A stretch of 39,623 nucleotides of DNA from Pseudomonadota bacterium (GCA_029780415.1 JAKOYN010000073.1:1-39623), one strand, 5' to 3'; positions 334-28,711 are shown, numbered from the stretch's first letter. Program-made: numbers and translations. Notes: generated from the sequence alone by a model not told the origin.

Positions 334-564
334 GGGCATGGACAGGGTGGAGACCGGCTACTGGGAAAGGCGCCGATTCTAGCGCGGTTTTGTCCCACCA
401 GCCGATCCGGATGCGATAGGCCGCGTCCAGCCTGCCGCGTCCATGTTAGAATCGTCTCCGATTTTATTTTTATTATGGTGGCGCTTGCCGCCATCGTAGC
501 CGGCCAGCCTTGCTGACCCTGTTCTCCCATACTGGGACCATGACCACCGGCCTCACCGGCCCTT

Positions 565-1098: not shown

Positions 1099-1099
1099 C

Positions 1100-2302: not shown

Positions 2303-2313
2303 AAGGCAGCGCC

Positions 2314-4725
2314 ATGGACCTGCATCGTCCGTTATCTTCGCCGGTGCGCTATCTGAGCCTGCGCTGGAAGACGCTGATCCTGCTCAGCGTCGTGCTGGTG
2401 CTGGTCAATACCGCGCTGGCGCTGCTGGCCTACCGGCAATCAGCGCGGCAGTTCAATCAGCAGCAGGCGCAACTGCGCGAGCAGCACATCCGCCAGTTTC
2501 GTTCCCTGTTCGATGAGGGCTATCGGCAGATGTCGCGGCTGGCCAACATCGTGCCACTGCTGGGCTCCTATCATCCAGCCCCGGATCTCAATGCCCGCCT
2601 GCGCCAGGCAGTAGGCGCCAACGGCTATATGCTCGATCTGGAATGGGATATCCGCTCGGTGCACTGGCTCCCGGCCACCGGCCAGCTCACCCTGCTGTGG
2701 CCACCTGAAGCGCCGCCGCTGCCGATCACAGTCGCTGAGCAATTGCGCGCGGCGACCGAGCACACCACCACTCTGCTGTCCTGTGACGAGGACTGTCGCC
2801 AATATTTGGCTTCGCCCCTGCTCTGGGAAAGCCATTTTGCCGGTACCCTGCTCCTCAGCCGCTCACTGGCCGATATGCTGCTGGCCTTCCAGGCGCTGAC
2901 GGGTGTCGATGTTGCCATAGTCAATACCCAGATTGCCGCCACCCGACCCGCGCCGGCGGACTGGATGCAGCGCCGCTTCCCAGCCGTCACACATCGTGAA
3001 CAACTGCAACTGATTCTGGTAGAGACTGGACTGACCCAGCAGCTACTCGCGCCCGGTGATAGCCCGCACTGGGTGACCGTCGGCGCGCAGACCTTTGAGC
3101 TGTCGCGCCTCGCTACCCTGGCGACCGGCGTCGATGCCCTGGCCATCACTGAAGTCACCGCCCAGCGTCAGGCTATCGCCCAGGCAACCCGCAACAGCTT
3201 CCTGATCGGCCTGCTCGGGCTGGCGCTCTCGGAAACCCTGCTGCTGCTGCTGCTGCGCAAACCGCTATCCCGGCTGCGCCGCCTGGCCGAACTGCTGCCG
3301 CTGCTCGCTGAAAACCGCCATGTCGAACTGCGCACCCGGCTGCCGCTGCTGGGCCGTTCGCCCCTGCATCGGGACGAAATGGACCTGCTGGTCGATACGG
3401 TTGGCAATCTGACCACGCGCATGCAACAGCTCCAGCAAGACCGCGAAGAGGCCGAAAGCCGCCTGCTGTGGCTGGCCGATCACGACCCGCTGACCACGCT
3501 GGCCAACCGCCGGCGCTTCAACGACGATTTCAGCCGGGTGATTGATCAGGCCCTGCGCTATAACCACTCGGGCGCGCTGCTGTTTTTCGATCTCGACCAG
3601 TTCAAGGATGTCAACGACCTCAGCGGTCACAGTATCGGCGACCAACTGCTGATCCAGATCGCCAGCCAGCTGCAGCAGATCGTGCGCAAAAGCGACCTGC
3701 TAGCGCGCTTTGGCGGCGACGAATTCGCGCTGGCCATCCCGGAATCGAGCGTCGAGCAGGCCATCGTCACTGCCGAGCGCGTGCAGGAGGCGGTGCGCGC
3801 CATCGTGCTGCACAGCCACGGCCGGCGGCATCAGGTATCCGCGAGCATCGGCATCGCCCTGTTTCCGCTCCACGGTGAACAGCCTCAGCAGGTACTGGCC
3901 AACGCCGATCTGGCCATGTACCAGGCCAAGGCCAAGGGCCGTGGCGTCTGGCACCTGTTCTCCGACGATGAACAGGCCCGCGAGCAGGCCGCCAGCCGCG
4001 TGCTGTGGAAACAGAAAATCGCCGATGCCCTGGCCGAGAACCGCTTCGAGTTGTACGGCCAGCCGATCCTGCACATCCCCACTCAACGCGTGACCCGCAT
4101 GGAGGTGCTGCTGCGGATGCGCGAAACCGATGGCACACTGGTCTATCCTGACCGTTTCATCCCAATCGCCGAGCATACCGGCCAGATTAGGGCCATCGAT
4201 CACTGGGTGCTGGCGCGGGCGATCGCCTTGATGCATGAGCAGCCGGAACTCTGCCTGTCGGTCAACCTGTCCGCCGGCGCTCTGGAAGATCCCTCGCTGC
4301 TGCCAGACATTGAGGCCCAGTTGCGTGACCAGAACATCGTCGCGGCGCGGGTGACCTTTGAAATCACCGAAACCGTCGCCATCAACAACCTGCAGGACGC
4401 CATCCGGCTGATGCACAGCATTCGTCAACTCGGCTGCCGCTTTGCCCTGGACGATTTCGGCAGCGGTTTTGCCTCCTATGCCTATCTACGGCAGTTACCG
4501 ATCGACGATGTAAAAATCGACGGAACCTTCATTCGCGAACTGGCGGCAAACCGCGAAGACCAGATCTTCGTTAAGTCGATCACCGACATTGCCCACGGCA
4601 TGGGCAAGCGGGTCGTCGCCGAGTTTGTTGAGAACGAAGAGATTCTGCGCATCCTCGGCGAAATCGGCGTCGACTACGCTCAGGGCTACCACATTGGCCG
4701 ACCGGCACCGCTGCCAGCGGCCTGA
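2314..4725 (+). CDS. Membrane sensor diguanylate cyclase/phosphodiesterase (periplasmic sensor domain, TM, GGDEF and EAL domains)
   Basis: Two TM segments flank a ~280-aa periplasmic region. The GGDEF motif is RFGGDEFAL, preceded by LFFDLDQFKDVND. The EAL domain shows EVLLRMRE ... FALDDFGSGFASYAYLRQLPIDDVKID. Confidence 0.9.
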   Translation: MDLHRPLSSPVRYLSLRWKTLILLSVVLVLVNTALALLAYRQSARQFNQQQAQLREQHIRQFRSLFDEGYRQMSRLANIVPLLGSYHPAPDLNARLRQAVGANGYMLDLEWDIRSVHWLPATGQLTLLWPPEAPPLPITVAEQLRAATEHTTTLLSCDEDCRQYLASPLLWESHFAGTLLLSRSLADMLLAFQALTGVDVAIVNTQIAATRPAPADWMQRRFPAVTHREQLQLILVETGLTQQLLAPGDSPHWVTVGAQTFELSRLATLATGVDALAITEVTAQRQAIAQATRNSFLIGLLGLALSETLLLLLLRKPLSRLRRLAELLPLLAENRHVELRTRLPLLGRSPLHRDEMDLLVDTVGNLTTRMQQLQQDREEAESRLLWLADHDPLTTLANRRRFNDDFSRVIDQALRYNHSGALLFFDLDQFKDVNDLSGHSIGDQLLIQIASQLQQIVRKSDLLARFGGDEFALAIPESSVEQAIVTAERVQEAVRAIVLHSHGRRHQVSASIGIALFPLHGEQPQQVLANADLAMYQAKAKGRGVWHLFSDDEQAREQAASRVLWKQKIADALAENRFELYGQPILHIPTQRVTRMEVLLRMRETDGTLVYPDRFIPIAEHTGQIRAIDHWVLARAIALMHEQPELCLSVNLSAGALEDPSLLPDIEAQLRDQNIVAARVTFEITETVAINNLQDAIRLMHSIRQLGCRFALDDFGSGFASYAYLRQLPIDDVKIDGTFIRELAANREDQIFVKSITDIAHGMGKRVVAEFVENEEILRILGEIGVDYAQGYHIGRPAPLPAA

Positions 4726-6600: not shown

Positions 6601-9600
6601 ATGCCCGACCTTCCCGTGCCCACGCTTGCCGACCCGTCCCGCTGGCAGTTCTGGATTGACCGTGGCGGTACCTTCACCGATATCGTCGCCCGCCGCCCCG
6701 ATGGCCAACTGGTGACGCATAAGCTGCTCTCGGACAATCCCGGGCATTATGCCGATGCGGCCCTGCACGGGATTCGCCAGTTGCTCGGCCTGTCCCGGGA
6801 CCAGCCAATTCCCGCCGAACGCATCGCGGCGGTGAAAATGGGCACTACCGTCGCCACCAATGCCCTTTTGGAACGCAAGGGTGACCGTACTCTGCTGCTC
6901 ATTACCCAGGGCTTTCGCGACGCTCTGCGCATCGGCTATCAGAATCGGCCCAGGCTGTTCGCCCGCCATATCGTGCTGCCGGAATTGCTGTACGAGCGGG
7001 TCGCGGAAGTGAACGAGCGGGTCGCGGCGCACGGCGACATCATCATCCCCTTCGATGCCGACAGCACCCGCGCGGCGCTGATCGACGCTTACCAGGCCGG
7101 TATCCGCGCCGTAGCCATCGTGTTCCTGCACGGCTATCGCTACCCGGATCACGAGCGGCGCGCGGCAGAACTGGCGCGCGCCATTGGCTTCAGCCAGATT
7201 TCAATCTCGCATCAGGTCAGTCCGCTGATGAAGCTGGTCGGGCGCGGCGACACCACCGTAGTGGACGCTTATCTATCGCCGATCCTGCGCCGCTACGTTG
7301 ACCGGGTGAGCGCCGAACTGGGCAACGCGCGCCTGCTGTTCATGCAGTCCAATGGTGGTCTGGCCGATGCCCGCCATTTCCAGGGCAAGGACAGCGTTCT
7401 GTCCGGCCCGGCCGGTGGCATCGTTGGCGCCGCCCGCAGCACGGCCCGCGCCGGCTTCGACCGGATCATCACCTTCGACATGGGCGGTACATCCACCGAT
7501 GTCGCCCACTACGCCGGCGCATACGAACGCGCCTTCGAAACCCTGGTCGCTGGCGTGCGGCTGCATGCACCGATGCTGCATATCCATACCGTAGCGGCGG
7601 GCGGTGGCTCGATCTGCCGCTTTGACGGCAGCCGGCTGCGGGTTGGACCGGAATCCGCCGGCGCCCATCCCGGTCCGGCCTGCTACCGGCGCGGTGGGCC
7701 GCTGACCGTGACCGACTGCAACCTGCTTCTCGGGCGGATTCAGCCGGCATTCTTCCCGCGCGTGTTCGGTGCCACTCAGGATCAGGCCCTGGACCGGGCA
7801 ACGGTCATCGACCGGTTTGCAGCGCTGGTCGCCAGAATTCAGGCCGCAACCGGAACGCTGCATACGCCAACGGCACTGGCCGAGGGCTTCCTGAATATCG
7901 CCATCGAAAACATGGCGAATGCCATCAAGCAGATTTCCACCCAGCGCGGTTATGACGTGACCGAATACACCCTGTGCTGCTTTGGCGGTGCCGGCGGCCA
8001 GCATGCCTGCGCGGTGGCCGATGCGCTGGGCATGTCGAGCGTCTTCATTCATCCCTTTGCCGGGGTGTTGTCGGCCTATGGCATGGGGCTGGCCGACGCC
8101 CGGCTGTTGCGGGAACAGGCGATCGAAGCGCCGCTGAGCGCCGCACTTTTGCCAACCCTGGAAAGGGTATTCGCCAAACTGGAACAGGCCGGCCGGACGG
8201 AAATGGCAGCGCAGGACATTCCCGCCGCGCACATCCGCAGCGCCCGTACCGTTCGCCTGCGCTACGCCAACAGCGATAGCGCTCTGAGCATCACCGCCGA
8301 TGAGCTGAGCACCCTGCAGGCACGCTTTGAAAGCGCTCACCGGCAGCGCTATGGTTTTCTCATGCCGGACAAGGCATTGATCGTACAGGCAGCGCTGCTT
8401 GAGGTGATCGGCGGTGGCTTCGATATCGGCCACGCCGATGCGCCTGAACCGGCTGGCCCTGTGCCAGAATCCAAGGCGGCATCATCAACCCCGCAACCCA
8501 TCACAACGGTCCCGGTGCATATTGCGGGTCGCGACCATGATGCGCCCCTGTACCGGCGTGACCAGTTGCGCCCCGGCGATCGCATCCCCGGTCCCGCCAT
8601 CCTGAGTGAAACCGGCGCTACGACGCTGATCGAACCCGGCTGGCAGGCCGACATCACGGCGCGGCACGATCTGGTGCTGACGCGGCATGAACCCCTCGCT
8701 CGACGGGTAGCGGTCGGGACTGCAGCGGATCCTATTTTGCTGGAGGTGTTCAACAACCGGTTCATGGCCATCGCCGAACAGATGGGCGTGACCCTGGCCA
8801 ATACCGCGCATTCGGTCAACATCAAGGAACGGCTGGATTTTTCCTGCGCGCTGTTCGACCAGAACGGTCAATTGATCGCCAACGCCCCGCATATTCCGGT
8901 GCATCTTGGTTCGATGGGCGAAGCGGTGCAGGCACTCATTCAGGCACAGGGCGACCGGTTCCTGCCCGGCGACGTCTACGCCAGCAACGCGCCCTACAGC
9001 GGCGGGACGCATCTGCCGGACATCACGGTCATCACCCCGGTTTTCGATGCAGAAGGGGAACAGGTTCTGTTCTACGTCGCCTCGCGCGGCCATCACGCCG
9101 ACATCGGCGGCATTTCGCCCGGCTCGATGCCGCCGGACAGCGTCAGCATCGATCAGGAAGGCGTGTTACTGGACAATTTTCCACTGGTGACAGGCGGACG
9201 GTTCTGCGAGCGGGAACTGCTCGAACAGTTGAACCGTGGCCCCTGGCCGGCTCGCAACCCGCAGCAAAATCTCGCTGACCTGCAGGCCCAGATTGCCGCC
9301 AACGGCAAGGGTGTGCAGGAACTGCAGCACATGGTGGCACAGTTTGGATTACCGGTGGTCCACGCCTACATGGGCCACGTCCAGGATAACGCCGCCGAAC
9401 AGGTACGCCGGGCGCTGGACCGGCTGCAGGAGGGTAAGTTCACCTACGAGATGGACAACGGCGCGGCTATCCGGGTCGCTATCACACTGGATCGGGAACG
9501 CCGCTCGGCCCGGATCGACTTCACCGGCACCTCGCCGCAACAGGCCAGCAATTTCAATGCACCGCGCGCGGTAGGTCTGGCGGCGGTGCTGTACGTGTTC

Positions 9601-19774: not shown

Positions 19775-20121
19775 GAGGCGCGGCGATATCCAGGCACGTT
19801 GAAGTAGCAAGTCCACCCGACCAGTGGACGGCTGCGCATTATACGCAAGGCGGCGTGCCGCAAAACCACCGCTGGACCACGCGCTTCAGGCACCGGCGGC
19901 GCGCTGCGATCACGGCAACCCCCAGCCGATACGGATCGGTACCGACCGACCGCCCGTTTTTCAGACGCTTTTTCATGCCCTGCCCAATCTCCCGCTAACA
20001 CTGCGGATCTGTTTGCTTTTTGCCTACCGAGACACAGCAATGCCCGGCATATTGTCTTTTTTATTGAACAAATGCGCAGGGCCGGTTTGCGCTGGTTATT
20101 GCAGGCTTTTTCCCGAAGGCG

Positions 20122-20140
20122 GAATAAAACCGTTTTATTC
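20122..20140. promoter_or_regulatory. Perfect 19-bp palindrome, a candidate enhancer (UAS) for the sigma-54 activator
   Basis: GAATAAAACcgGTTTTATTC has 9-bp inverted arms with a 1-nt centre. It lies ~65-80 bp upstream of the -24 element, and an AT-rich tract sits between them. Confidence 0.45.
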
Positions 20141-20202
20141 ATGACACAGATTCGATTTACGGTCATTCAATTAATTATTATTAAAAACATCAAGTTAACG
20201 AT

Positions 20203-20218
20203 TGGCACGATGGTTGCT
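20203..20218 (+). promoter_or_regulatory. Sigma-54 (RpoN) promoter, -24/-12 elements
   Basis: TGGCACGatggTTGCT is a perfect match to TGGCACG-N4-TTGCW, with GG at 20204-20205 and GC at 20216-20217. It lies ~84 bp upstream of the ATG of the first small secreted protein gene. Confidence 0.8.
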
Positions 20219-20300
20219 AAATCCTTATCGACGCTGAATCTCTGGCGTCTTCGGTAAAAAGCAAGATGCCCTGCATCACTTCATTATTGGAGGCAATCTC

Positions 20301-20588
20301 ATGAAAACCAAACTGTATAGCGCTATTGTCGGTGCCACTCTGCTGGCCGCTTCCGGTCTGGCCATGGCTGAAACCCCGCTGACCACCAGTCAGATGGACG
20401 GCGTGACTGCGGGTGGCGTCGCCACAGCAACGGCACTCGCGGCAGCGGCGGGCAAATACCTAGCGGCGACCGTAACCGAAACTGAAACCATCGTTCAGGG
20501 TGTGCTGCTGGTGCCGGTACAAGTCGGCAGCATTTGGGTCGTCGGCACAGGCGCGGGATCCTATTCCGAATCCTATGCCCACAATTAG
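20301..20588 (+). CDS. Small secreted protein, paralog 1 (Sec signal peptide plus Ala-Gly leader-like segment)
   Basis: MKTKLYSAIVGATLLAASGLAMA|ETPLTTSQMDGVTAG|GVATATALAAAAG... has an AXA signal-peptidase site followed by the conserved segment L-[ST]-x-x-[QD]-[ML]-D-x-[VI]-[TS]-A-G. A GGAGG Shine-Dalgarno sits 7 nt upstream. It is the first gene after the sigma-54 promoter. Confidence 0.7.
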   Translation: MKTKLYSAIVGATLLAASGLAMAETPLTTSQMDGVTAGGVATATALAAAAGKYLAATVTETETIVQGVLLVPVQVGSIWVVGTGAGSYSESYAHN

Positions 20589-20644
20589 CTCAGCTTTCCG
20601 GCGTAAGCACTAAACATTTGGCTGACTTATTCAGGAGACTCACC

Positions 20645-20959
20645 ATGAAACGTTTCGCGATTCTTGCCGCCGCCGCCCTGCTGGGCGCCACCAGTTATGC
20701 TAATGCCGAGACCGTGCTGTCCGGCCCGCAAATGGATCAGATCAGCGCAGGTCTTTTCGGTCTTGCGATCACCGAAGGCATGGCCATCGCCACCGGTGAT
20801 ATTGGCTCCCTGTCAACCACAAATTCGGTGAGCGGCGTTAATCTGCTTGCTCCAAACCCAATCGCCTATAGCGCGACCGCTAGCGCTGCCATAGCGACCG
20901 GCTTCCTGGGCGCGGTTGCCGGCAGTCAATCGGCAAGTGGCTCGGAGCTCGGCAACTAA
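20645..20959 (+). CDS. Small secreted protein, paralog 2
   Basis: MKRFAILAAAALLGATSYANA|ETVLSGPQMDQISAG|LFGLAITEG... shows the same signal-plus-leader motif. The mature part is Ala/Ser/Thr/Gly-rich. Confidence 0.7.
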   Translation: MKRFAILAAAALLGATSYANAETVLSGPQMDQISAGLFGLAITEGMAIATGDIGSLSTTNSVSGVNLLAPNPIAYSATASAAIATGFLGAVAGSQSASGSELGN

Positions 20960-21044
20960 GTTGCGAGTCTCTCGAAAGAGCGGTTATCAAACCTTGCGGC
21001 GCGATGACCGCTCGCGCACGACTCAAGCATTGGAGATAGACAAC

Positions 21045-21524
21045 ATGATCAAGCATATGCAGTTAAGCGCTCTATCCCTGTGCGCCTTGACCGCGACCGC
21101 TATTGCAGCGCCACCATCACAAAATCCGCTGACACTATCCAGCATTGACCTGGATCGTGTGACCGCAGGCGGCGTCGTCAATGGCGTTGTTACAGCTTCG
21201 GCAATCGCCTACGGTCCATCGGACGCCATAACCGATACCAGTACATTTTCCAGCACGACACTGAGTCCGGGACCCACAGCCGCGCAGAATTCCACATTGG
21301 TTGTAGTTGTCGGTTCAGCAACCGCCTATGGCGGACTCGGCGGCACCACGGCAACGGCAACTGACAGTGCGATTAATTCCGCCACTACCAACACCGTTGG
21401 CCATACCTACGAAATTAGCCTGCAGGGCCATCTCGCTTCATCCTCGACGGTGTTTGCCTATGAGCTCGGTCGCCCCGCGCAACTCGGTCAGGGCGCTAGT
21501 ACACCGGTGGTATCACCGTATTAG
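21045..21524 (+). CDS. Small secreted protein, paralog 3
   Basis: MIKHMQLSALSLCALTATAIA|APPSQNPLTLSSIDLDRVTAG|GVVNG... shows the same motif. The mature part is Thr/Ser/Ala/Gly-rich and low-complexity. Confidence 0.7.
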   Translation: MIKHMQLSALSLCALTATAIAAPPSQNPLTLSSIDLDRVTAGGVVNGVVTASAIAYGPSDAITDTSTFSSTTLSPGPTAAQNSTLVVVVGSATAYGGLGGTTATATDSAINSATTNTVGHTYEISLQGHLASSSTVFAYELGRPAQLGQGASTPVVSPY

Positions 21525-21529
21525 CCGAT

Positions 21530-21553
21530 CAGGCGTCCCTTCCCGGACGCCTG
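21530..21553 (+). terminator. GC-rich hairpin (9-bp stem) just after paralog 3, with no U-tract; a possible partial terminator or attenuator
   Basis: CAGGCGTCC-cttccc-GGACGCCTG starts 6 bp after the stop codon at 21522-21524. Confidence 0.35.
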
Positions 21554-21603
21554 CGCCGTGCGTGTCCCGGCAATTCCTTCTAGACGGCAGGATCGAGATA
21601 CTC

Positions 21604-22065
21604 ATGAATATGCAAAGCCGATTTCTTTCCCGCACCGGATTCGCTGGCATTTTGGCGCTATTTATACCTCTGGGATCACTCGCTGCTGAAACCACTAGCC
21701 CGGCAGCGACCGTAATTATTCGTTGCGCCTGGCCCGGACCCGCGACGAATCCGGACAATGCCCCTGCCACCGATGGCAACAGCGCTTGCACCTGCGTGAG
21801 CAACGGCAATGGCAGCACCTGCAGTTGCACCAGCGGCGCGGCGACCCCGGTCAATAGCGGCTCCACACCCGTCTTCACCGTCGATGCCAGCTCCAACACA
21901 CCTGCAACCCTGGTCGAGCACCTGAAAACCGCCACCAGTTGCGCCGATGCCAGGGCGTTCACCGAATCCGCCAGTGACGGCGCCCGCCAAGCCTGTACCC
22001 CCCTGGCCAGCGGCTCGGTGAATGCCCTGCTTTATTCCTGCACCGTTCCCGGCACTCCACTGTAG
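21604..22065 (+). CDS. Cysteine-rich secreted protein (8 Cys) with no Ala-Gly leader motif
   Basis: MNMQSRFLSRTGFAGILALFIPLGSLA|AETTSP... is a signal peptide. The mature part carries C-x-C/C-x-C-type cysteine clusters. Confidence 0.6.
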   Translation: MNMQSRFLSRTGFAGILALFIPLGSLAAETTSPAATVIIRCAWPGPATNPDNAPATDGNSACTCVSNGNGSTCSCTSGAATPVNSGSTPVFTVDASSNTPATLVEHLKTATSCADARAFTESASDGARQACTPLASGSVNALLYSCTVPGTPL

Positions 22066-22102
22066 AACCTGTATACCCTGTATCCCAGCACTCGCGCCGC
22101 AG

Positions 22103-22144
22103 AAAAAAAGGAAACGGGCAAAAAACTCTCTGTCACCCGTTTCC
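22103..22144. terminator. Hairpin with an upstream A7 run after the Cys-rich gene; terminator-like when read on the minus strand, or weakly bidirectional
   Basis: AAAAAAA-GGAAACGGG-(17-nt loop)-CCCGTTTCC. On the minus strand the stem is followed by TTTTTTT. Confidence 0.4.
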
Positions 22145-22331
22145 AGCTAACGCGGCGCGGCACCACTTGCCCACGCACGCACCGCGCGACCCCACCTGAC
22201 CCATCGCCCACGCCATGTGCCCCGGTTGACATCATCCCCAGCAAGTCACATTTTTATTATTTATAGAATCAAAATTGATATTTTTATACTAGGATTGTGA
22301 TAGAAAAATCTGCACATGGAGTTGCCAAACC

Positions 22332-22982
22332 ATGCGTGCCAGCCTCATACCCTGCCGCTGCTTTCCCGCGATCATCCTCGCCACGCTCCTGCTCACCGGC
22401 CCGATCCAGACCACTCACGCCGAGGACTATCCGCCGGTCAAGTCACTGCTGGAAATACGCCGCGAACGGGTTGTAATCCAGAAATGGGATCTGAGTTGCG
22501 GCGCCGCAGCCCTGACCACCCTGTTGCGCTACCAGCACGGCGACCCGGTCACCGAAAAGGATGTCGCCACCGCGCTAATCAACCGTAGCGAATATCTGCG
22601 CAATCCTCAGCTCGTGCAGATTCGTGAGGGCTTTTCCCTACTCGACCTCAAGCGCTATGTCGATGGTCGCGGCTATCAGGGCACCGGCCTGGGCCAGCTC
22701 ACCCTCGACGACCTCAATCGGCGCGCACCGATCCTGATTCCGATCCAGACCCGGGGCTACAACCACTTCGTGGTGTTCCGTGGCCAACGCGACAACCGCG
22801 TCCTGCTCGCTGACCCGGCCTGGGGCAACCGCACCATGACCGTAGAGCACTTCATGCAGGCTTGGATCGACTACCCAAAAATCGGTCACGTTGGCTTCGT
22901 CGTCGAAGCAGCGCCCGGTCATCCACGCAGCGCATCCACACCGCTTGCACCGCGCCCCGAGGAATTCGTCACGTTCAATTGA
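22332..22982 (+). CDS. Standalone periplasmic C39-like cysteine peptidase (Peptidase_C39_2 / FapD-like architecture)
   Basis: A signal peptide is followed by the catalytic Cys context WDLSCGAAALTTLLRYQ, the His context GYNHFVVFRG, and the Asp context LLADPAWG. Length is 216 aa. There is no ABC-transporter fusion. Confidence 0.75.
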   Translation: MRASLIPCRCFPAIILATLLLTGPIQTTHAEDYPPVKSLLEIRRERVVIQKWDLSCGAAALTTLLRYQHGDPVTEKDVATALINRSEYLRNPQLVQIREGFSLLDLKRYVDGRGYQGTGLGQLTLDDLNRRAPILIPIQTRGYNHFVVFRGQRDNRVLLADPAWGNRTMTVEHFMQAWIDYPKIGHVGFVVEAAPGHPRSASTPLAPRPEEFVTFN

Positions 22983-23054
22983 GCCCCCTCCAGCACTTTC
23001 CGCCGCCATGCAGGGAACCGATTTCATCGTCAAATGCACGCAAGGAGATTATTC

Positions 23055-24299
23055 ATGGCCCGTCTGCCGTTTCGCTGGACCCGCCACCCCCTTTCACGCC
23101 ATCCGCTTACGAGCTGTTGCACGACGCTGGGCATCAGCACCCTGAGCCTGTGCCTGCTGAGCGGCGCGCCCGCCAGCGCCGACGATGTCATCACACAAGC
23201 CGACGCCCGCCAGTTACGCCAGGAACTGCGCGAACGGGATCGCATCATTGCTGAACTGCTGGCACGGGTCAGCGAACTGGAACGCCGCATGGATGGCGAC
23301 ACCACGCCACCGGCCAGCACCAGACGCCGCGCCACTGCCAGGACCCGTACCGCACAAATCACCGCGCCGGCACCTGTCGCCACACCTACACCCACGCCTG
23401 AACCGGTAAGCAGCGCGGTCGCGCCGCCTGCTCCGACCGGTCCCGGCGCGGTGGCCATCGATGCACAGGCTGCAGAACGGGCCCTGGAACGGACCCTGAC
23501 CGCCGAGGGCGCCCTGCTGCTGCCAGCGGGCAGTTACGACTTCGAGCCGTACTTCAATTACAACCGCCGGGTCAACGATGGCCCAACCCTGGTGCAAACC
23601 GACGCAGGCATCCTGGCGCGCAGCTTCGGGATCCGTCGCAATGAATTTGATCTGGGTCTGCGCGCCCGCGTCGGCCTGCCCTATGACGCCCAGGTGGAAC
23701 TCGACCTGCCCTATCGCAGCGTCAATCAGGAGCTGTTGCGACCCACCGGCCTGGCCGGCTTCGACAGCACTGAAAATACCGGCTCGGCCATCGGCGACAT
23801 CCGCCTGGGCATCGCCAAAACCCTCAGCCGCGAAAGTGGCTGGCAACCGGACCTGGTCGGACGCCTGACCTGGAACACCGGCACTGGGGAAATCGTCGAT
23901 CAGAACGTACCGATGGGCGATGGCTTCAACCGCCTGCGCGCCTCACTGACTGCGCTCAAGCGTCAGGATCCCCTGGCCTTCACTGCCAGCCTGGCCTACC
24001 AAACCACATTTGAAAAAGACGGTGTCCAACCTGGCAACGAGCTTGGCCTGTCCTTCGGCGTCTCGCTGGCCGCCAGCCCGGAAACCTCGCTGAGTCTTGC
24101 GCTGGCCCAGAGCTTTACTGCCGAAACCGAGTTGAATGGCCGCACGGTTACCGGCAGCGATCAGGTCAGCGGTGTGCTATTGCTCGGCGCATCCTCGGTG
24201 ATCAACCGGCAGACCCTGCTGCTGGTAACCGGCGCCATCGGCCTGACCGATGACGCCCCGGATTACGGCATCAGCATATCGCTACCGATCCGTTTCTAG
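23055..24299 (+). CDS. Outer-membrane beta-barrel with an N-terminal periplasmic coiled coil and Pro/Thr-rich linker (FapF-like architecture)
   Basis: The signal ends ...LLSGAPASA. The coiled-coil heptads are DARQLRQELRERDRIIAELLARVSELERRM, followed by the linker TPPASTRRRATARTRTAQITAPAPVATPTPTPEP. A putative plug helix is AQAAERALERTL. Amphipathic beta-strands end ...ISLPIRF. An AAGGAG Shine-Dalgarno precedes the ATG. Confidence 0.75.
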   Translation: MARLPFRWTRHPLSRHPLTSCCTTLGISTLSLCLLSGAPASADDVITQADARQLRQELRERDRIIAELLARVSELERRMDGDTTPPASTRRRATARTRTAQITAPAPVATPTPTPEPVSSAVAPPAPTGPGAVAIDAQAAERALERTLTAEGALLLPAGSYDFEPYFNYNRRVNDGPTLVQTDAGILARSFGIRRNEFDLGLRARVGLPYDAQVELDLPYRSVNQELLRPTGLAGFDSTENTGSAIGDIRLGIAKTLSRESGWQPDLVGRLTWNTGTGEIVDQNVPMGDGFNRLRASLTALKRQDPLAFTASLAYQTTFEKDGVQPGNELGLSFGVSLAASPETSLSLALAQSFTAETELNGRTVTGSDQVSGVLLLGASSVINRQTLLLVTGAIGLTDDAPDYGISISLPIRF

Positions 24300-25863
24300 A
24301 CCGTCGCCGCCACAGCAACAGCAGCGCCAGCCCGCCACCCAGCAGCCACAGGGTGGCGGCTTCCGCGAGCGGCGGTACCGGCACCGGCCCCGCGAAGGAC
24401 AGCAGCGCGCTGACCGGTGTCGAAACCGGCGTATCGATGGCCTCCAGCACCCCAGTGTCAAAACCCAGGAACAGTTCCGGCAGGTAGAACGAATCCATGC
24501 TGATGCGGCTGAGAAATGCCGCCAGCCAGCGGGAATCGCTCTGCGCGCCCGGTTCCGTCATCAGAATTGGCGCGAAGCCATTGAAACCCTGCACCGGATG
24601 CAAGCTGCCGTCCAGGACCACGGTCGGCGTGCGTGCAGTCAGCACCACATGATGGTTTCCATCGAACAGGCGCAGATCGCTACCGGAAAAATACCGCCGG
24701 CCCTCCAGAGTGCCCAACTGCGCCAGCGGATCAATCTCCAGAAATCCACCCAGCAGGGAATCCGCCAGTTCATCGGCATCGAATGTCCAGTCGCGCCCAC
24801 CCCGAAGCATATCGAGCGGAATCGGATCAAAAGCCAGCAGGCCGCTGGAGGGATCCCAGTGCACCTGCGGATCGCCAGGCGCACCGGACGCCCGGTAGCC
24901 GGCGGATTCTTCGACCTGTATCACCGCGCGGGGCGGTGCCTCGTAGGACTGCTCGGTGTGACGGCTGAACAGGATCAGCCCAAGCGGAGCAAATTCCCGA
25001 TCAAAGGCATCCAGCAGCGGCACCGCTACGCGCAACGGCTCCGCGTCCGGCTGCAGCAGCAGGCGACCCGCAGCAGCGTTGAACTGCGTGGCGAACCAGT
25101 CACGGATCGCGTCACTCCCTGGCACATCAAACACCCGGACCGTGGGCAAGCCATTTTCCAGGTAGCCCAGAAAACCGACCTCATCGTAGCGCACCGCGCC
25201 CGTCGCGCTGATCTGCACAGTCGTCAGCGTATCGCGCATGTAGGCCAGACTGCTCGCCGGCGTGCCCTGCCAGCGCAGCGTATCGAAATCCCAATCCAGA
25301 TGCAGGAACAGATCATCGCTCCCCCGGTCGGGATCGGCGCGGAGCTGAATACCCAGGGCCATACCCTCGGTCATGGCGGTGGCGCGGCCAAAGAGCGGCT
25401 CGGTAGCCCACGCAGCAGCATAGGTCGCCTGGCTTATCGCGAACTGGGCCAGCATGCCGCTCTCATCGAGAGCGCCACCAAGCCATGCCCCGGGGGCCAT
25501 CCCAACCGCGATGCCCGCCCCGGCAGTCGCTGCATGCGCACTGACCCCAGGCACTGCAATTGACGTAAATCCCAAGCCGTCCTGCACTGAACGCACCGTA
25601 GTCGCAAATGTCACCGTACTCGTCGTCGATCCCGCTTGGGCAAGCGCATAGGGATTGCCAATAAACTCAATACCCGCCGTTTCCGACAGCCCGATCGTCA
25701 TAGTCAAAATGCTTGCCGTTTCTGCAGCAGGCACAAAAGATGTTTGCGCAACAGCTGAATTCATAGCGATGCCAAGCCAGCCGATGCCCACTATTGAAAG
25801 CCATCCTTTGTCCCGAAAATACTGCTTTCCGTATTCAGCAAGCGCTCCCTTTAATCTCTGCAT
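24271..25863 (-). CDS. Secreted protein with a PEP-CTERM-like C-terminal sorting signal (variant Pro-rich motif)
   Basis: The N-terminus is MQRLKGALAEYGKQYFRDKGWLSIVGIGWLGIAMNSAVAQ. The C-terminus is ...VPVPPLAEAATLWLLGGGLALLLLWRRRSRNGSVAIC, giving a Pro motif, a TM helix and an Arg cluster. The 3' end overlaps the convergent OMP gene by 29 bp. The start is uncertain, since the ORF is open up to 26067. Confidence 0.6.
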   Translation of the reverse strand: MQRLKGALAEYGKQYFRDKGWLSIVGIGWLGIAMNSAVAQTSFVPAAETASILTMTIGLSETAGIEFIGNPYALAQAGSTTSTVTFATTVRSVQDGLGFTSIAVPGVSAHAATAGAGIAVGMAPGAWLGGALDESGMLAQFAISQATYAAAWATEPLFGRATAMTEGMALGIQLRADPDRGSDDLFLHLDWDFDTLRWQGTPASSLAYMRDTLTTVQISATGAVRYDEVGFLGYLENGLPTVRVFDVPGSDAIRDWFATQFNAAAGRLLLQPDAEPLRVAVPLLDAFDREFAPLGLILFSRHTEQSYEAPPRAVIQVEESAGYRASGAPGDPQVHWDPSSGLLAFDPIPLDMLRGGRDWTFDADELADSLLGGFLEIDPLAQLGTLEGRRYFSGSDLRLFDGNHHVVLTARTPTVVLDGSLHPVQGFNGFAPILMTEPGAQSDSRWLAAFLSRISMDSFYLPELFLGFDTGVLEAIDTPVSTPVSALLSFAGPVPVPPLAEAATLWLLGGGLALLLLWRRRSRNGSVAIC

Positions 25864-26158
25864 GAATCGCAAAGGTTTGCAATCATCTTGAGCCTGGAAC
25901 CGAATACGGCCATGGATATGCAAACTGCCACAGGTCAAATCCAGAAACGCTCCAGAATCCAGCAGCCGCAAACAGTCAGGCATCCATGAAGTCCAAGGCC
26001 AAACTGCCTGTAAAACCGCTGCATCATATAATCCCGCTCGCCCTATCCTGAATTGCATGGCGACCACCTCACAAGCGACATAAATCCTGAAATTCCATGT
26101 CAGAAAATCCCGTATCCATTTCCATAAATGGATTCCTGAACCCGGACACTAACAGAAC

Positions 26159-27544
26159 TTATTTCCTGAGTTTTCTATGCGCCTGATTATTTTCGTTCAT
26201 CTCTACATTGAACTTGCAAAGCCGGTACAGCGAGGCGCGGGAAATACCCAGAACCTTGGCCGCGCGGGTCAGGTTTCCATTAGCATGCTGAATCGCGATG
26301 TGGATTGCATCATGCTCGGCTCTCTTGCGCGCCTCTTCAATAGTGACGATTTGTCTGGAATTATTGCGCCGATCCAGATCCAGATGTTTCGGAGCAATCA
26401 GCCGGTCATCGCAAAACAGCACCGCTCGCTCGACCCGGTTGATCAACTCGCGCACATTGCCAGGCCAGTTGTGCACACGCATGACCCGCAAGGCTTCAAT
26501 GCTGAAGTCTCTGGGTTTCGACTTGTTTTGCTCCCTGAGAAATTTCTCTAGAAAACAATAAGCTAGATCTATAATATCGTCTTCTCTTTCCCGCAGTGGC
26601 GGCATTTGCAGATGCAGTGTATTCAAGCGATAGTACAGATCCTCACGAAAAGTACCCTCGACCACCGCGCGCTTCAAATCGCGATGGGTAGCGGCAATGA
26701 CACGCACATTCAGACCAATACTTTCAGTACCGCCCAAGCGCTCGATGGTTTTCTCCTGCAGAAAGCGCAGCAGGGCTATTTGTACATCCGGAGCGATATC
26801 GCCTATCTCATCAAGCAGAATTGTACCTTCGTTTGCAGCTTCAATCTTGCCCATCTTGAAGCGGTTTGCGCCGGTAAAGGCACCTCTTTCATATCCAAAA
26901 AGTTCGGATTGAATCAGATTGGCCGGCAATGCAGCACTGTTGACCGTAATCCATGGACCTTTCGCGCGCTGGGAAAATTGATGCAGGGCGCGCGCTGCCA
27001 GTTCCTTGCCTGTTCCGCTTTCGCCGGTAATCAACACGGTTTTTTCAACCGGCGCCATTTTAATGATCTGCTGCCGGACATTCTTCATGGCAGTGGACTT
27101 GCCAATTAGAATGTAATTTTTTTCAATCGACGTGTCGTAATTCCTGGCGATAGATCGTGCCAACTCACTCATGCCATAGGCGCGACAGAGAGCCGGCAAC
27201 AATCGCGACATGTCGATGGGTAATCGCTGGTAATCGTAGAAATGGTTCACAATCGTCTCGCGAACCGCAGGATTGGAGATGGCCGCATCATCGGTCATGG
27301 CAATCCATTGCACATGTTTTCCCAAACTAACCAGTTCCTGGATACAGCGCAAAAAATCCGGTTGATAGCGGGTCATAAACACGATACCCACCCGGTGATT
27401 ATCGGTAAAAATAGCTTTCTTGGCGCTGTTGATGTCATTAATCTTGGTCACATTCCAGTGATCAAGACCAATATTATCAACCAAACTCATACCGTCATGA
27501 TCAGAAAAAAAAAGCAAAACATCTCTACGGTTCAATGTGGACAT
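26159..27544 (-). CDS. Sigma-54-dependent transcriptional activator (bEBP) with a degenerate N-terminal receiver-like domain
   Basis: AAA+ motifs are present: Walker A GESGTGKE, GAFTGA, and ESELFGYERGAFTGA. The C-terminus has a Fis-type HTH (AAKVLGISRASLYRL). The N-terminal ~130 aa look like a receiver fold lacking the acceptor Asp. The gene is markedly AT-richer than its surroundings. Confidence 0.85.
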   Translation of the reverse strand: MSTLNRRDVLLFFSDHDGMSLVDNIGLDHWNVTKINDINSAKKAIFTDNHRVGIVFMTRYQPDFLRCIQELVSLGKHVQWIAMTDDAAISNPAVRETIVNHFYDYQRLPIDMSRLLPALCRAYGMSELARSIARNYDTSIEKNYILIGKSTAMKNVRQQIIKMAPVEKTVLITGESGTGKELAARALHQFSQRAKGPWITVNSAALPANLIQSELFGYERGAFTGANRFKMGKIEAANEGTILLDEIGDIAPDVQIALLRFLQEKTIERLGGTESIGLNVRVIAATHRDLKRAVVEGTFREDLYYRLNTLHLQMPPLREREDDIIDLAYCFLEKFLREQNKSKPRDFSIEALRVMRVHNWPGNVRELINRVERAVLFCDDRLIAPKHLDLDRRNNSRQIVTIEEARKRAEHDAIHIAIQHANGNLTRAAKVLGISRASLYRLCKFNVEMNENNQAHRKLRK

Positions 27545-28711
27545 TGCAACCCCCTAATGACCGCCATTATCCGAAAACCACAATACATCACATGGTTTTT
27601 ATCCAGCCAAGCCAAGTAAAAATCTTAGCAACTCCGAACCTTCGCCATGTGTTGATCGTCCACACTGATCCTAGTATGTATTTTCTTGATTGTGCAATTT
27701 GTCGATCATTTTTATGTCTTGTTTTTAAGATTTTTTATGTCAAAATTTTATGACGTTATACAAATATGGCACTTTTTATATTATTAATCAGCTCATTGAT
27801 GGCATCTTGGCATACGTATTCATGCATCGATACCCCATCATGCATCAACATAAGCATCCATGACTGGAATATTGACACATAAAACCGCCCGATCAAAACG
27901 GCATGATCTGGATTACTTATTCCATTATCAGGGATAACCATGATTTCCATGCACAATAATCCTATCGCATAAAAAGGCGACACAACCAAGCTCCAACAGT
28001 TTTTCCTTAATCAACTATTTTTATTAACTAAATGATTTTAAATAAAATTTATAATCGCATTCATGAAAATATACGCAATAAAGCATTTGCTTTTACAGAA
28101 CAGCATCCGTTGCCTTGCGAAAATCGATCAGAGCATTTCACCAAATAAATCAGGAGACGCACTATCAGGAAAGCCGAAAAGGAGAGACGTGGAGGAAAGC
28201 TAAACTGGCTGCTGCGTGTCTCACGCTGACACATTTGCCTAGCGCATGCCCGGCAAATCCTTCACCCTACAGAACAGGCGCATGTCATGGCATTCACATC
28301 CGCCGCGTGGACGCTGCGCAATGCGTCCCGGGCGACAGGCGCCATCAGGGGATTGATCGAGGAACAGCAAGCCGCTCGATTCGACCAGCGCCGCTCAATT
28401 GCGTGACTGCAGGGCATGCAGTCGCCCGCAGGAACCTTTCATGCGAGAGGTCCGTTGTGCAATCTGTTCCAACACACGGTCGAGCAGCAACCAAGAACGA
28501 TCCTCGAAATTGCACGCCAGCGCCACCCAGCCAATCACCGGCATGCTTCAACCATTGCCAACAGCCACAGGTTCGGAATGCAGGATCATGGCAAGCGCTA
28601 CGCACAGCCAACAGCCGCGCCCCTTGGCCTTGATCAAACCCAGGACTTTCGCTTACCTGACTTTTTCCGTCATACGCGGGAAAGCGGGTATCCATTCTTT
28701 TCAACAAGCTA

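Follow-up and report, generated by a model that had tools for sequence, protein, structure and literature searches.

A predicted two-step secretion module whose small proteins carry a Sec-type signal followed by a double-glycine-type leader in a Candidatus Competibacteraceae genome

Genes of the locus

The stretch of DNA analysed (the window) was 39,623 nucleotides long (Pseudomonadota bacterium, GCA_029780415.1, JAKOYN010000073.1:1-39623) and belonged to a genome of Candidatus Competibacteraceae, a wastewater bacterium. The region from 20301 to 24299 was found to encode three small paralogous secreted proteins, followed downstream by a standalone peptidase and an outer-membrane protein (OMP). 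The following features were found in and around this region.

20203..20218 (+), sigma-54 promoter TGGCACGATGGTTGCT, 83 bp upstream of the first small gene.
20301..20588 (+), substrate 1 (95 aa), with a signal peptide at aa 1-23 (20301-20369, ending in AMA), a GG-type propeptide at aa 24-38, ETPLTTSQMDGVTAG (20370-20414), and an Ala/Thr-rich core of 57 aa.
20645..20959 (+), substrate 2 (104 aa), with a signal at aa 1-21 (ending in ANA), a propeptide at aa 22-36, ETVLSGPQMDQISAG, and a core of 68 aa.
21045..21524 (+), substrate 3 (159 aa), with a signal at aa 1-21 (ending in AIA), a propeptide at aa 22-42, APPSQNPLTLSSIDLDRVTAG, and a core of 117 aa.
21604..22065 (+), Cys-rich protein of 153 aa with a signal peptide and no GG-type leader.
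22332..22982 (+), standalone periplasmic C39 (double-glycine-type) cysteine peptidase of 216 aa with its own signal peptide.
23055..24299 (+), FapF-like outer-membrane protein of 414 aa (alternative start at 23034), with a signal peptide, a coiled coil of about 30 aa (DARQLRQELRERDRIIAELLARVSELERRM), a Pro/Thr/Ala linker of about 55 aa, a candidate plug helix and a beta-barrel, in this order.
24271..25983 (-), secreted protein of 570 aa with a PEP-CTERM/VPDSG-like C-terminal sorting tail, converging on the OMP gene.
26159..27544 (-), sigma-54-dependent activator with an N-terminal VpsR domain, closest to the PEP-CTERM-box regulator.

Each small protein contained a Sec-type signal, followed by a segment of 15-21 residues ending with L-[ST]-x-x-[QD]-[ML]-D-x-[VI]-[TS]-A-G. 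Substrate 1 was found to contain MKTKLYSAIVGATLLAASGLAMA, then ETPLTTSQMDGVTAG, then G, whereas substrate 2 contained TSYANA, then ETVLSGPQMDQISAG, then L, and substrate 3 contained TATAIA, then APPSQNPLTLSSIDLDRVTAG, then G. The cores contained 51-57% Ala+Thr+Ser+Gly and 5-7% Asn+Gln, and were devoid of Cys. The core of substrate 1 belonged to a cluster shared with 7 other loci. Its AlphaFold model was of low confidence (pLDDT 62), with a helix over the leader and three long strands in the core.

The peptidase matched Pfam Peptidase_C39 (PF03412) at 51 bits against a cut-off of 22. It contained an N-terminal hydrophobic signal, and no ABC domain was present. Loss of the Cys/His dyad on alignment had been named in advance as a result that would count against the reading; however, Cys56 (WDLSCG), His145 (NHFVV) and Asp161 (ADPAWG) were invariant in 22 homologs. 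The AlphaFold model (AF2, pLDDT 81) best matched the double-glycine peptidase domains of PCAT1, LahT and ComA, with a target-normalised TM of 0.71-0.75, and a profile of the family matched the LahT GG protease (6mpz); the fold matches included LahT in complex with its leader. More than 5285 homolog clusters of the peptidase were found.

The OMP aligned end to end with the NCBIfam FapF model (E 1.8e-13, positions 5-420 of 420). An affinity with an unrelated porin family would have counted against the reading, but in the PDB the protein matched only FapF among membrane barrels (E 2e-6), and the one other hit was a marginal flagellar protein (E 0.048). The heptad coiled coil and the Pro/Thr/Ala linker were conserved in about 56 of 65 homologs. 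The plug helix and the strand number were not confirmed, as no confident model of the OMP was obtained.

The sigma-54 promoter was the only exact match to TGGCAC-N5-TTGCW in the window, and no sigma-70-like site was found in 19800-24500. The same element was present upstream of the orthologous gene in the closest relative (locus L007), but a strict match was found upstream of leader genes in only 3 of 71 sequence sets tested, one of which is the window itself. The promoter is thus specific to this lineage and is not a feature of the family. Its likely activator is the product of 26159..27544, which matched Pfam Sigma54_activat (6.9e-67) and VpsR (1.6e-15), and TIGR02915 at 389 bits, below its cut-off of 503. 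Homologs of this regulator were present next to the module in 6-7 of 80 related loci and in locus L091. The protein at 24271..25983 showed a weak VPDSG-CTERM match at residues 571-590; its homologs were present in 9-10 of 80 loci, so that it accompanies the module only occasionally, and its role is unknown. The Cys-rich protein was called as a gene in the source contigs and had no Pfam or NCBIfam match. A homolog was found only in L007; although it lies in the operon, its membership in the system is doubtful.

The observation made in the initial annotation is confirmed: the paralogs with their AMA, ANA and AIA sites, the motif spacing, the C39 peptidase and the outer-membrane protein were all present where it had placed them. 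A few details were corrected. The peptidase starts 0.8 kb after the third paralog, not 1.3 kb, the Cys-rich ORF lies between them, and gene callers start the OMP at 23055.

Conservation of the leader and of its gene neighborhood

Conservation of the motif in other genomes, and its co-occurrence with the C39 and OMP genes, had been proposed beforehand as tests. We examined 80 related loci from Alpha-, Beta- and Gammaproteobacteria, collected from the peptidase. The motif was found 207 times in the ORFs of these loci, against a mean of 2.3 (maximum 6) in 50 shuffles, and the window itself contained only the three matches in the small proteins. The motif was conserved well beyond orthologs. The consensus was L(-12)-[TS]-x-x-Q(-8)-M(-7)-D-x-V(-4)-T-A-G(-1), and in 204 of 210 cases it was preceded by a signal-like hydrophobic N-terminus, with the motif starting at residues 24-36. 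Besides L(-12), the frequencies were T/S(-11) 81%, Q(-8) 74%, M(-7) 81%, V(-4) 88%, T(-3) 74%, A(-2) 95% and G(-1) 88%, whereas from +1 onward no residue exceeded 27%. The regular expression used to collect the sequences fixes or restricts several of these positions, and those frequencies are partly circular; an independent HMM search gave a similar picture. Conservation stopped exactly after Ala-Gly, and the cores, with a median of 76 aa, fell into 88 unrelated clusters among 204.

Leader-bearing small genes were present in 72 of 80 loci, with 1-7 genes per locus, typically 2-4, and 235 in all. Of the eight loci without them, five had under 0.7 kb of upstream sequence, whereas L008, L031 and L076 had adequate flanks and contained the peptidase but no nearby leader gene. 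The barrel was present next to the peptidase in 68 of 80 loci. Two loci with sequence around the peptidase showed no barrel, namely L049, which has full flanks, and L020, which has only downstream sequence. Only the peptidase and the barrel were conserved partners across loci. The linkage was also found in the opposite direction: two leader proteins found independently both lay next to a C39 gene, and one of them also lay next to a 407-aa gene of barrel size, which was not checked for homology. A leader profile found 2078 protein clusters in public data at E<=1e-3 among 1.84 billion representatives, none of them matched by Pfam or NCBIfam, and no Pfam or NCBIfam model matched the substrates.

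Comparison with known systems

As had been suggested for testing, both proteins were searched with models of the Fap system. In the Fap functional-amyloid system of Pseudomonas (FapA-F), FapD is a periplasmic C39 peptidase whose catalytic Cys is needed for Fap secretion (PMC5557850), and FapF is a trimeric barrel. As in Fap, a standalone C39 peptidase with a signal peptide was present next to a homologous barrel with an N-terminal coiled coil and a disordered linker, and the cargo of both is Sec-dependent and unfolded. The NCBIfam FapD model matched the peptidase at 7e-26; however, the scores were far below the equivalog cut-offs (91 against 330 for FapD and 50 against 700 for FapF), so that the proteins are related but distinct. 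Identity to a Fap-like Aeromonas operon was only 37% for the peptidase and 27% for the barrel. No FapA, FapB, FapC or FapE homologs and no Asn/Gln repeats were present, and every cargo protein here contained a clear GG-type propeptide.

The nap island of Neisseria, described in PLoS Biol in 2025 (PMC11798529), contains small GG-motif peptides (NapA/B/C) encoded beside a signal-peptide C39 peptidase (NapP) and a FapF-related channel (NapF), and the published model is cleavage in the periplasm by NapP followed by export through NapF. NapP was 33% identical to the window peptidase (E 1e-20). The Nap peptides are cationic, helical and lytic, their precursors lack a recognisable Sec signal plus consensus leader, and a holin was proposed for crossing the inner membrane. 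NapF had no N-terminal coiled-coil region in the sequence given in the supplement, as read by eye and not tested, and was barely alignable to the window OMP (E 0.03). The island is confined to a few Neisseria species, whereas the family found here spans three proteobacterial classes and has a uniform leader.

In the Acinetobacter Fil "putative pilus" locus (FilA-F), read in locus L087, FilB is a C39 peptidase and FilC a FapF-like barrel, adjacent to FilA, which has a signal peptide. The window proteins matched the NCBIfam FilB model at 4e-29 and the NCBIfam FilC model at 1.5e-7, again below the cut-offs (102 against 475 and 31 against 630). FilA is a 289-aa DUF6160 protein whose post-signal motif (MQSMDDAALSAATGQDG) differs from the one found here, and the additional FadL-like, FilE and FilF genes of Fil were absent.

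The leader has the spacing of double-glycine leaders processed by peptidase-containing ABC transporters (PCAT; class II microcins, ComC, lantibiotics; LahT, ComA, PCAT1), with hydrophobic residues at -12, -7 and -4, an acidic or polar residue at -8 or -6, and small residues at -2 and -1, and the peptidase has the same fold and catalytic residues. However, the leader here follows a Sec signal instead of lying at the very N-terminus, the peptidase is periplasmic and not fused to an ABC transporter, and no ABC or MFP genes were found in the loci. The site is Ala-Gly and not the canonical Gly-Gly, Gln-Met replaces Glu-Leu, and no NCBIfam leader or bacteriocin model matched. Curli (type VIII) secretion of CsgA/B through CsgG is a functional analogy only, as a Sec-dependent, ATP-independent route which exports unfolded, beta-prone fibre subunits through a dedicated outer-membrane channel. 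The curli channel is unrelated, curli has no peptidase step, and the resemblance of some cores to curlin repeats was not significant (Curlin_rpt E 0.24).

The initial annotation considered the system Fap-related but distinct and possibly undescribed, and the last point needs tempering. Co-localised fapD-fapF homologs in other phyla were noted in 2018 (PMC6173800), and the Fap work of 2017, the Fil locus and the nap island are precedents. Neither the 2018 report nor the Neisseria study describes a Sec signal followed by a canonical GG-type leader, and this clean bipartite leader is, as far as our search of the literature extended, undescribed.

Inferred route of secretion and alternative readings

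The interpretation given in the initial annotation, that the substrates are exported by Sec, trimmed after Ala-Gly by the periplasmic C39 enzyme and released through the barrel, is supported, and every prediction that could be checked by computation held. We consider it the best explanation, with fairly good confidence. The motif, its conservation, the homologies and the gene linkage were observed directly in the sequences, whereas removal of the signal by signal peptidase, C39 cleavage at Ala-Gly and passage through the barrel are all inferred, and no experiment exists for any member of this clade.

In this view, the locus is a two-step secretion module of the Fap/Fil/Nap kind, with a periplasmic C39 peptidase and a FapF-type outer-membrane channel, whose cargo proteins carry a bipartite N-terminal address. 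A classical Sec signal peptide would take each small protein across the inner membrane and signal peptidase I would remove it, as inferred from a typical n-region and h-region and a small-x-small site 3-5 residues before the motif. The new N-terminus would be a propeptide of about 15-17 residues, (A)EPxx-L-[TS]-x-x-Q-M-D-x-V-T-A-G, which the co-encoded peptidase would bind as an amphipathic helix and cut after Ala-Gly. This is inferred from homology and fold, the invariant catalytic triad, the conservation cliff exactly at -1/+1 and the strict gene linkage. The unfolded core would then be handed to, and pass through, the FapF-like barrel, whose periplasmic coiled coil probably recruits substrate or peptidase, as inferred by analogy with FapF. 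Outside the cell, the Ala/Ser/Gly/Thr-rich, weakly charged, beta-prone cores most likely assemble into fibres or matrix material. This role rests on composition, a low-confidence all-beta model and non-significant curlin/RHIM resemblance.

An alternative, which we consider unlikely, is that the machinery is the same but the cargo is bacteriocin-like or microcin-like, or lytic as in the Neisseria Nap peptides, so that the module would be a Sec-dependent alternative to PCAT/type I export of class II microcins. The leader closely resembles class II microcin leaders such as that of colicin V, MRTLTLNELDSVSGG. The cores are small, Gly/Ala/Ser-rich and extremely diverse (88 clusters among 204, and 47 of them contain two or more Cys), multiple paralogs per locus are usual, and the Nap peptides are described as bacteriocin-like (PMC11798529). 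However, clustering of ORFs of 100 aa or more across loci showed no recurrent immunity-like gene, although this search could miss small immunity genes. Several core families (clusters 1, 2, 4 and 6) were conserved across classes of bacteria, which fits structural proteins better than arms-race toxins. The cores are nearly uncharged (4-7% charged in the window), whereas the Nap peptides are cationic, the known cargo of FapF-type channels is amyloid subunits, and the regulator here is of a biofilm or floc type.

It is also unlikely that the hydrophobic N-terminus is a membrane anchor or a part of one long leader, from which C39 cleavage would release the core of an inner-membrane-tethered precursor. 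The signals were assigned from hydropathy and small-x-small sites without a signal-peptide predictor, and the Nap precursors have long hydrophobic N-terminal parts without an obvious signal-peptidase site. However, most precursors here contained a textbook Lys/Arg n-region, an h-region of 10-15 residues and an A-x-A-type site 3-5 residues before L(-12). This reading differs from the best explanation only in whether signal peptidase acts first, and the C39 and export steps are unchanged.

Least likely is an uncleaved recognition or chaperoning tag, which might dock onto the coiled coil of the barrel or keep the cargo unfolded while the C39 enzyme processes something else, such as the OMP linker, or acts mainly as a chaperone, as C39-like domains do in some type I systems. 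The FapD target in Fap is still unknown and cleavage of FapF itself was considered (PMC5557850), an OMP homolog in locus L079 contained a motif-like LSSGDLDRVVAG just after its coiled coil, non-catalytic C39-like domains exist, and the HlyB C39-like domain was among the fold matches; but the invariant Cys/His/Asp make a purely chaperone role unlikely, conservation ends exactly at Ala-Gly with small residues at -2 and -1 as expected for a scissile site, the OMP of the window has no such motif, and the single L079 match is within the 2.3 expected by chance.

In this organism the operon would be driven by the sigma-54 promoter and the VpsR/PrsR-like activator, a kind of regulator associated with biofilm and floc formation. 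In the best explanation, the leader works as a general export tag, because it is attached to at least 88 unrelated core types. The combination of leader-bearing small proteins, periplasmic C39 peptidase and outer-membrane barrel recurs in most of the related loci examined across Proteobacteria, so it looks like a widespread two-step secretion route related to the Fap system of Pseudomonas.

Gene content of the locus

In this Candidatus Competibacteraceae genome from wastewater, a block of lower G+C (about 20.0-28.5 kb) was found between parE and pgk/gap/tkt. The block contained the following features:

20203-20218 (+), perfect sigma-54 promoter, TGGCACGATGGTTGCT
20301-20588 (+), small protein 1
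20645-20959 (+), small protein 2
21045-21524 (+), small protein 3
21604-22065 (+), 153-aa Cys-rich secreted protein
22332-22982 (+), 216-aa C39 peptidase
23055/23034-24299 (+), 414/421-aa outer-membrane protein (OMP)
24271-25983 (-), 570-aa secreted protein with a PEP-CTERM/VPDSG-like tail
26159-27544 (-), sigma-54 activator with a VpsR domain
27545-28700, AT-rich stretch of about 1.1 kb

The observation of the initial annotation was correct, as the three small proteins read exactly as it had described. Each of them contained a signal peptide ending in AMA, ANA or AIA, followed by ETPLTTSQMDGVTAG and then G, ETVLSGPQMDQISAG and then L, and (APPSQ)NPLTLSSIDLDRVTAG and then G, respectively. The cores were found to contain 51-57% Ala+Thr+Ser+Gly, 5-7% Asn+Gln and 4-7% charged residues, whereas Cys was absent.

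The sigma-54 promoter is the only exact TGGCAC-N5-TTGC element in the window and lies 83 bp upstream of the first small gene. The activator gene lies 1.9 kb beyond the operon and is closest to the PEP-CTERM-box regulator TIGR02915 (389 bits, below the cut-off). No sigma-70-like promoter was found in 19800-24500, and the scans for terminators and Rfam families gave nothing informative. Sigma-54 control was rejected as a family trait, because a strict promoter was present upstream of the leader genes in only 3 of 71 sequence sets tested, namely the window, L007 (the locus of the nearest relative) and the related locus L023. The activator co-occurred in only 6-7 of 80 related loci.

The 153-aa protein between the third small gene and the peptidase was rich in Cys, Thr, Ser and Pro (...NSACTCVSNGNGSTCSCTSG...) and contained a signal peptide but no GG-type leader. 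A homolog was found only in L007, and the protein was therefore rejected as a conserved component. The 570-aa protein contained no Pfam domain and ended in the tail VPVPPLAEAATLWLLGGGLALLLLWRRRSR, and its stop overlapped the OMP stop region. Homologs with 30-42% identity accompanied the module in 9-10 of 80 loci, and it was rejected as a core component; its function is unknown. The AT-rich stretch (G+C 42-50%) between the activator gene and pgk contained only a 64-aa called ORF and had no Rfam match.

The peptidase and the outer-membrane protein

The peptidase matched Pfam Peptidase_C39 (PF03412) with 51.1 bits against a cut-off of 22 (E 1.5e-13) and contained its own hydrophobic signal. Loss of the catalytic Cys and His had been named beforehand as evidence against the proposal; however, Cys56, His145 and Asp161 were invariant across 22 diverse homologs of 57-73% identity. 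A profile of the family matched the LahT double-glycine protease 6mpz in the PDB. The best Foldseek matches of the AlphaFold model (pLDDT 81) were the double-glycine peptidase domains of PCAT1, LahT (6mpz, in complex with its leader) and ComA, with target-normalised TM of 0.71-0.75 and E of about 1e-5. The enzyme contained no ABC domain, and no ABC gene recurred in the 80 loci; in this respect it differs from the PCAT/bacteriocin exporters, in which the C39 domain is fused to an ABC transporter and acts in the cytoplasm.

The peptidase and the barrel are homologs of FapD and FapF, but the searches with FapD and FapF models, which had been proposed in advance to place the two proteins, gave scores below the equivalog cut-offs. 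The peptidase scored 90.9 bits against the FapD cut-off of 330 (NCBIfam NF058616) and the OMP scored 50.1 bits against the FapF cut-off of 700 (NF058560). The OMP alignment nevertheless covered the full length of the FapF model (E 1.8e-13). An unrelated porin family was the alternative named for the OMP, but FapF was its only barrel match in the PDB (5o65, 5o67 and 5o68, E 2e-6), the one other hit being a marginal flagellar protein at E 0.048. The OMP is therefore a homolog of FapF and not an ortholog.

After its signal peptide, the OMP contained four clean heptads (DARQLRQELRERDRIIAELLARVSELERRM) followed by a Pro/Thr/Ala linker of about 55 residues. A heptad segment of 28 residues or more, with the coiled-coil motif xLxxxLxERDxxIxDLxRRVxxLE, followed by a low-complexity Pro/Thr/Ala/Ser-rich stretch, recurred in about 56 of 65 complete homologs. 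The median heptad score was 1.5, against 0.58 for the barrel regions used as a control. The plug helix suggested in the initial annotation, the 12 strands and the trimer were not verified, as no structural model of the OMP was made and only the sequence alignment to FapF residues 127-333 is available. In the OMP homolog of a Geminicoccaceae locus (L079, about 6657-6750), the barrel protein itself carried a leader-like LSSGDLDRVVAG immediately after its coiled coil. This is either a chance match (about 2 are expected in the data set) or a hint that some barrels are also processed, as was once proposed for FapF.

Conservation of the leader and diversity of the cores

The peptidase family is large, with at least 5285 clusters at E<1e-5. 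A scan of one genome per species returned 80 loci, from the Gammaproteobacteria (Methylobacter, Crenothrix, Thiocapsa, Lamprobacter, Halioglobus), Betaproteobacteria (Nitrosospira, Nitrosomonas, Noviherbaspirillum, Sulfuriferula) and Alphaproteobacteria (Defluviicoccus, Geminicoccaceae, Pelagibius). Conservation of the motif in other genomes, together with the peptidase and barrel genes, had been put forward as a test before the comparison, and it was found in most of these loci. A permissive regular expression matched 207 times in their ORFs, whereas fifty residue-shuffles gave a mean of 2.3 and a maximum of 6, and a chance origin of the motif was rejected. In 204 of 210 matches the motif started at residues 24-36, behind an N-terminal hydrophobic segment with a Lys/Arg n-region, and the last small-x-small site was present 3-5 residues before L(-12). 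The leader therefore does not lie at the extreme N-terminus, as it does in double-glycine leader peptides without a Sec signal.

In 204 proteins, the leader contained A at -18 (57%), E at -16 (50%), P at -15 (64%), L at -12, T or S at -11 (81%), Q at -8 (74%), M (81%) or L (19%) at -7, D at -6, V at -4 (88%), T at -3 (74%), A at -2 (95%) and G at -1 (88%). From +1 onward no residue exceeded 27%, and the conserved block therefore ends exactly at Ala-Gly. The spacing is identical to the double-glycine consensus L(-12) S(-11) xx E(-8) L(-7) xx I(-4) x G(-2) G(-1), with substitutions of Q for E, M for L and A for G. The positions -12, -8, -7, -6, -4, -2 and -1 were restricted by the regular expression. 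However, an HMM built from 84 leaders gave the same picture independently, with 235 hits in 72 of 80 loci, usually 2-4 per locus. Of the eight loci without hits, five have under 0.7 kb of sequence upstream of the peptidase, whereas L008, L031 and L076 have adequate flanks but no leader gene nearby. L008 belongs to a related Competibacteraceae genome, whose peptidase is 78% identical; the gene upstream of the peptidase (391-3225) encodes a 944-aa subtilisin/kexin-like secreted protease, and no small leader genes were found there, although the contig ends 3.4 kb upstream.

The barrel gene was found next to the peptidase in 68 of 80 loci, and most of the rest are contig ends. Clustering of all ORFs showed that only the peptidase and the barrel are conserved partners across loci. 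A LuxR-type regulator was present in 23 loci, a LysR type in 12, the PEP-CTERM-like protein in 10 and the sigma-54 activator in 7. Starting from the substrate side, two leader proteins found by profile search were present next to a Peptidase_C39 gene; one of them (P0146) also lies next to a 407-aa gene of barrel size, whose homology was not checked. A word-indexed search with a leader profile gave only 32 hits, all 'hypothetical', whereas an exhaustive profile search of 1.84 billion cluster representatives found 2078 proteins at E<=1e-3 and 80 at E<=1e-10. No Pfam or NCBIfam model matched any of these substrates. The sources that name them mostly call them 'hypothetical protein', and one carries a spurious methylase name.

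The cores had a median length of 76 aa, were rich in Ala, Ser, Gly and Thr, and fell into 88 BLAST clusters among 204 sequences. Some clusters spanned several genera; small protein 1 of the window grouped with cores from seven other loci, most of them labelled Gammaproteobacteria. Others were lineage-specific, such as the Cys-Cys cores in Nitrosospira, the Asp-rich repeats in Minwuiaceae and the short cores in Oxalobacteraceae that look like curlin or RHIM units (...VTIVQIGNNNTAIVISGNFSWIRQ). The resemblance of the last to curlin and RHIM was not significant (E 0.24 and 0.36). The AlphaFold model of small protein 1 was of low confidence (pLDDT 62) and is used only as a hint; it showed a helix over QMDGVTA and three long strands in the core. 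The leader thus behaves as a general tag on many unrelated, mostly beta-prone, weakly charged small proteins. We favor a fiber or matrix role, because of the FapF precedent, the cross-class conservation of some cores and the biofilm-type regulator present here. A bacteriocin-like or lytic role, as proposed for the Neisseria Nap peptides, remains a live alternative.

Comparison with known systems and the inferred secretion route

In the Fap comparison, Pseudomonas fap loci were not included, and an Aeromonas Fap-like operon and a Cupriavidus relative from the plasmid collection were used. The Aeromonas operon scored 249 (FapD) and 371 (FapF), also below the cut-offs but far higher than the window proteins, and the Cupriavidus relative scored 149 and 141. 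Pairwise identity to FapD, FilB and the Cupriavidus enzyme was 37-41%, and 24-28% for the barrels. No FapA, B, C or E was present; the small proteins had no NCBIfam Fap match at E<0.1, and their Asn+Gln content does not fit the Asn/Gln-rich Fap repeats. The Fap literature (latest 2018) states that the FapD substrate is unknown and that Fap proteins lack canonical C39 sites, and also notes co-localised fapD-fapF homologs in five further phyla. No title or abstract listed in later searches reports the FapD substrate; those papers were judged by title and abstract only.

In the Aeromonas caviae operon (L089, 7590-8237), the FapE-like protein (NCBIfam FapE, 46 bits, below the cut-off) contained, after its signal peptide, PE-L-A-D-G-E-L-A-H-L-R-G-R followed by Y. 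It has the L(-12)...E(-8)L(-7)...L(-4)xG(-2) spacing of a double-glycine leader and is a possible FapD site in Fap systems, although it rests on one sequence only. A third kind of C39 plus FapF-like module was found on the Cupriavidus metallidurans CH34 megaplasmid (L088, 6396-6884 and 7362-8732). Its neighboring proteins contained ...SSKLDDVRGG followed by AELVV and ...RLEESRGG followed by FDVAG, with VIQNxGNNxxIQN-type C-terminal motifs thereafter, and a 511-aa Gly-rich protein lies upstream. The Acinetobacter Fil locus is another relative and comprises FilA with DUF6160, FilB, FilC and extra genes. FilA of Acinetobacter baumannii (L087, 5679-6548) contained a conserved segment right after its signal peptide, AMA followed by MQSMDDAALSAATGQDG, which could be the FilB recognition site, but its spacing differs from the motif studied here.

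The closest conceptual precedent is the Neisseria nap island (PMC11798529), which has the same gene trio of GG peptides, a signal-peptide C39 (NapP, 33% identical to the window enzyme) and a FapF homolog (NapF). The published model is periplasmic cleavage followed by export. However, the peptides are unrelated, the window OMP is barely alignable to NapF, and NapF has no evident coiled-coil region. The Nap precursors lack a recognisable Sec signal plus consensus leader, and how they cross the inner membrane is left open, with a holin suggested. The PCAT and microcin systems share the leader logic and the peptidase fold, but they work from the cytoplasm.

The initial annotation had proposed export of the substrates by Sec, trimming after Ala-Gly by the periplasmic C39 enzyme and release through the barrel, and this interpretation was supported. 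The sequence analysis itself shows the gene trio and its linkage, the Sec-like signals on cargo, peptidase and barrel, the GG-leader spacing, an intact catalytic triad and C39 fold, and the homology of the barrel to FapF with a coiled coil and linker; the steps of the route are inferred. In this view, Sec export and signal peptidase I cleavage would leave a propeptide of about 15-17 residues, close to the 15-residue colicin V leader. The periplasmic peptidase would bind it as an amphipathic helix through positions -12, -7 and -4, which established work on ComA and LahT identifies as the positions recognised by double-glycine peptidases, and would cut after Ala-Gly. Cleavage was not assayed, and its only indirect support is the conservation cliff at -1/+1. 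The unfolded core would then pass through the barrel without ATP, as proposed for Fap and curli. In this organism the operon is probably switched on by the adjacent VpsR/PrsR-like activator acting at the sigma-54 promoter, a regulatory link specific to this lineage.

The type of machinery is already known. The new elements are the uniform bipartite address of a Sec signal followed by a GG-type propeptide, its presence in most loci of this very large clade (72 of 80 examined) and the diversity of cargo behind it. Full-text literature searches and the 2025-2026 Pfam and NCBIfam libraries showed no description of a Sec signal followed by a GG leader, although most subscription journals were not covered and an earlier description is not ruled out; the Nap island paper found in these searches lowers the claim of novelty.

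A broader reading, which we consider slightly more likely than not, is that Fap, Fil, Nap and this much larger clade are one class of Sec-dependent secretion system, in which a periplasmic C39 peptidase reads a double-glycine-type propeptide placed directly behind the Sec signal and cleavage licenses passage through a FapF-type barrel. The leader EPxxL[TS]xxQMDxVTAG would then be a portable outer-membrane export tag used by thousands of unannotated small proteins in nitrifiers, methanotrophs, purple sulfur bacteria and wastewater floc-formers, and it would also be the long-sought recognition rule for FapD-type enzymes. The segment of the Aeromonas FapE-like protein supports this reading.

The clade offers a clean, uniform candidate site, testable with one peptide and one purified enzyme, for the question of what FapD-type peptidases cut. 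It also suggests how GG-tagged cargo crosses the inner membrane, namely by Sec, a step that the Neisseria Nap model leaves unexplained. A tag of about 40 residues that drives export across both membranes would also be useful for protein secretion engineering. The bacteria involved, Nitrosospira, Nitrosomonas, Methylobacter, Crenothrix, Defluviicoccus and Competibacter, are environmentally important, and Competibacter was recently reported as a possible amyloid producer in sludge without a known genetic basis (PMC9720597). If the model is right, a large set of 'hypothetical' small proteins, with 2078 clusters at 50% identity found by the leader profile, becomes interpretable as a secretome.
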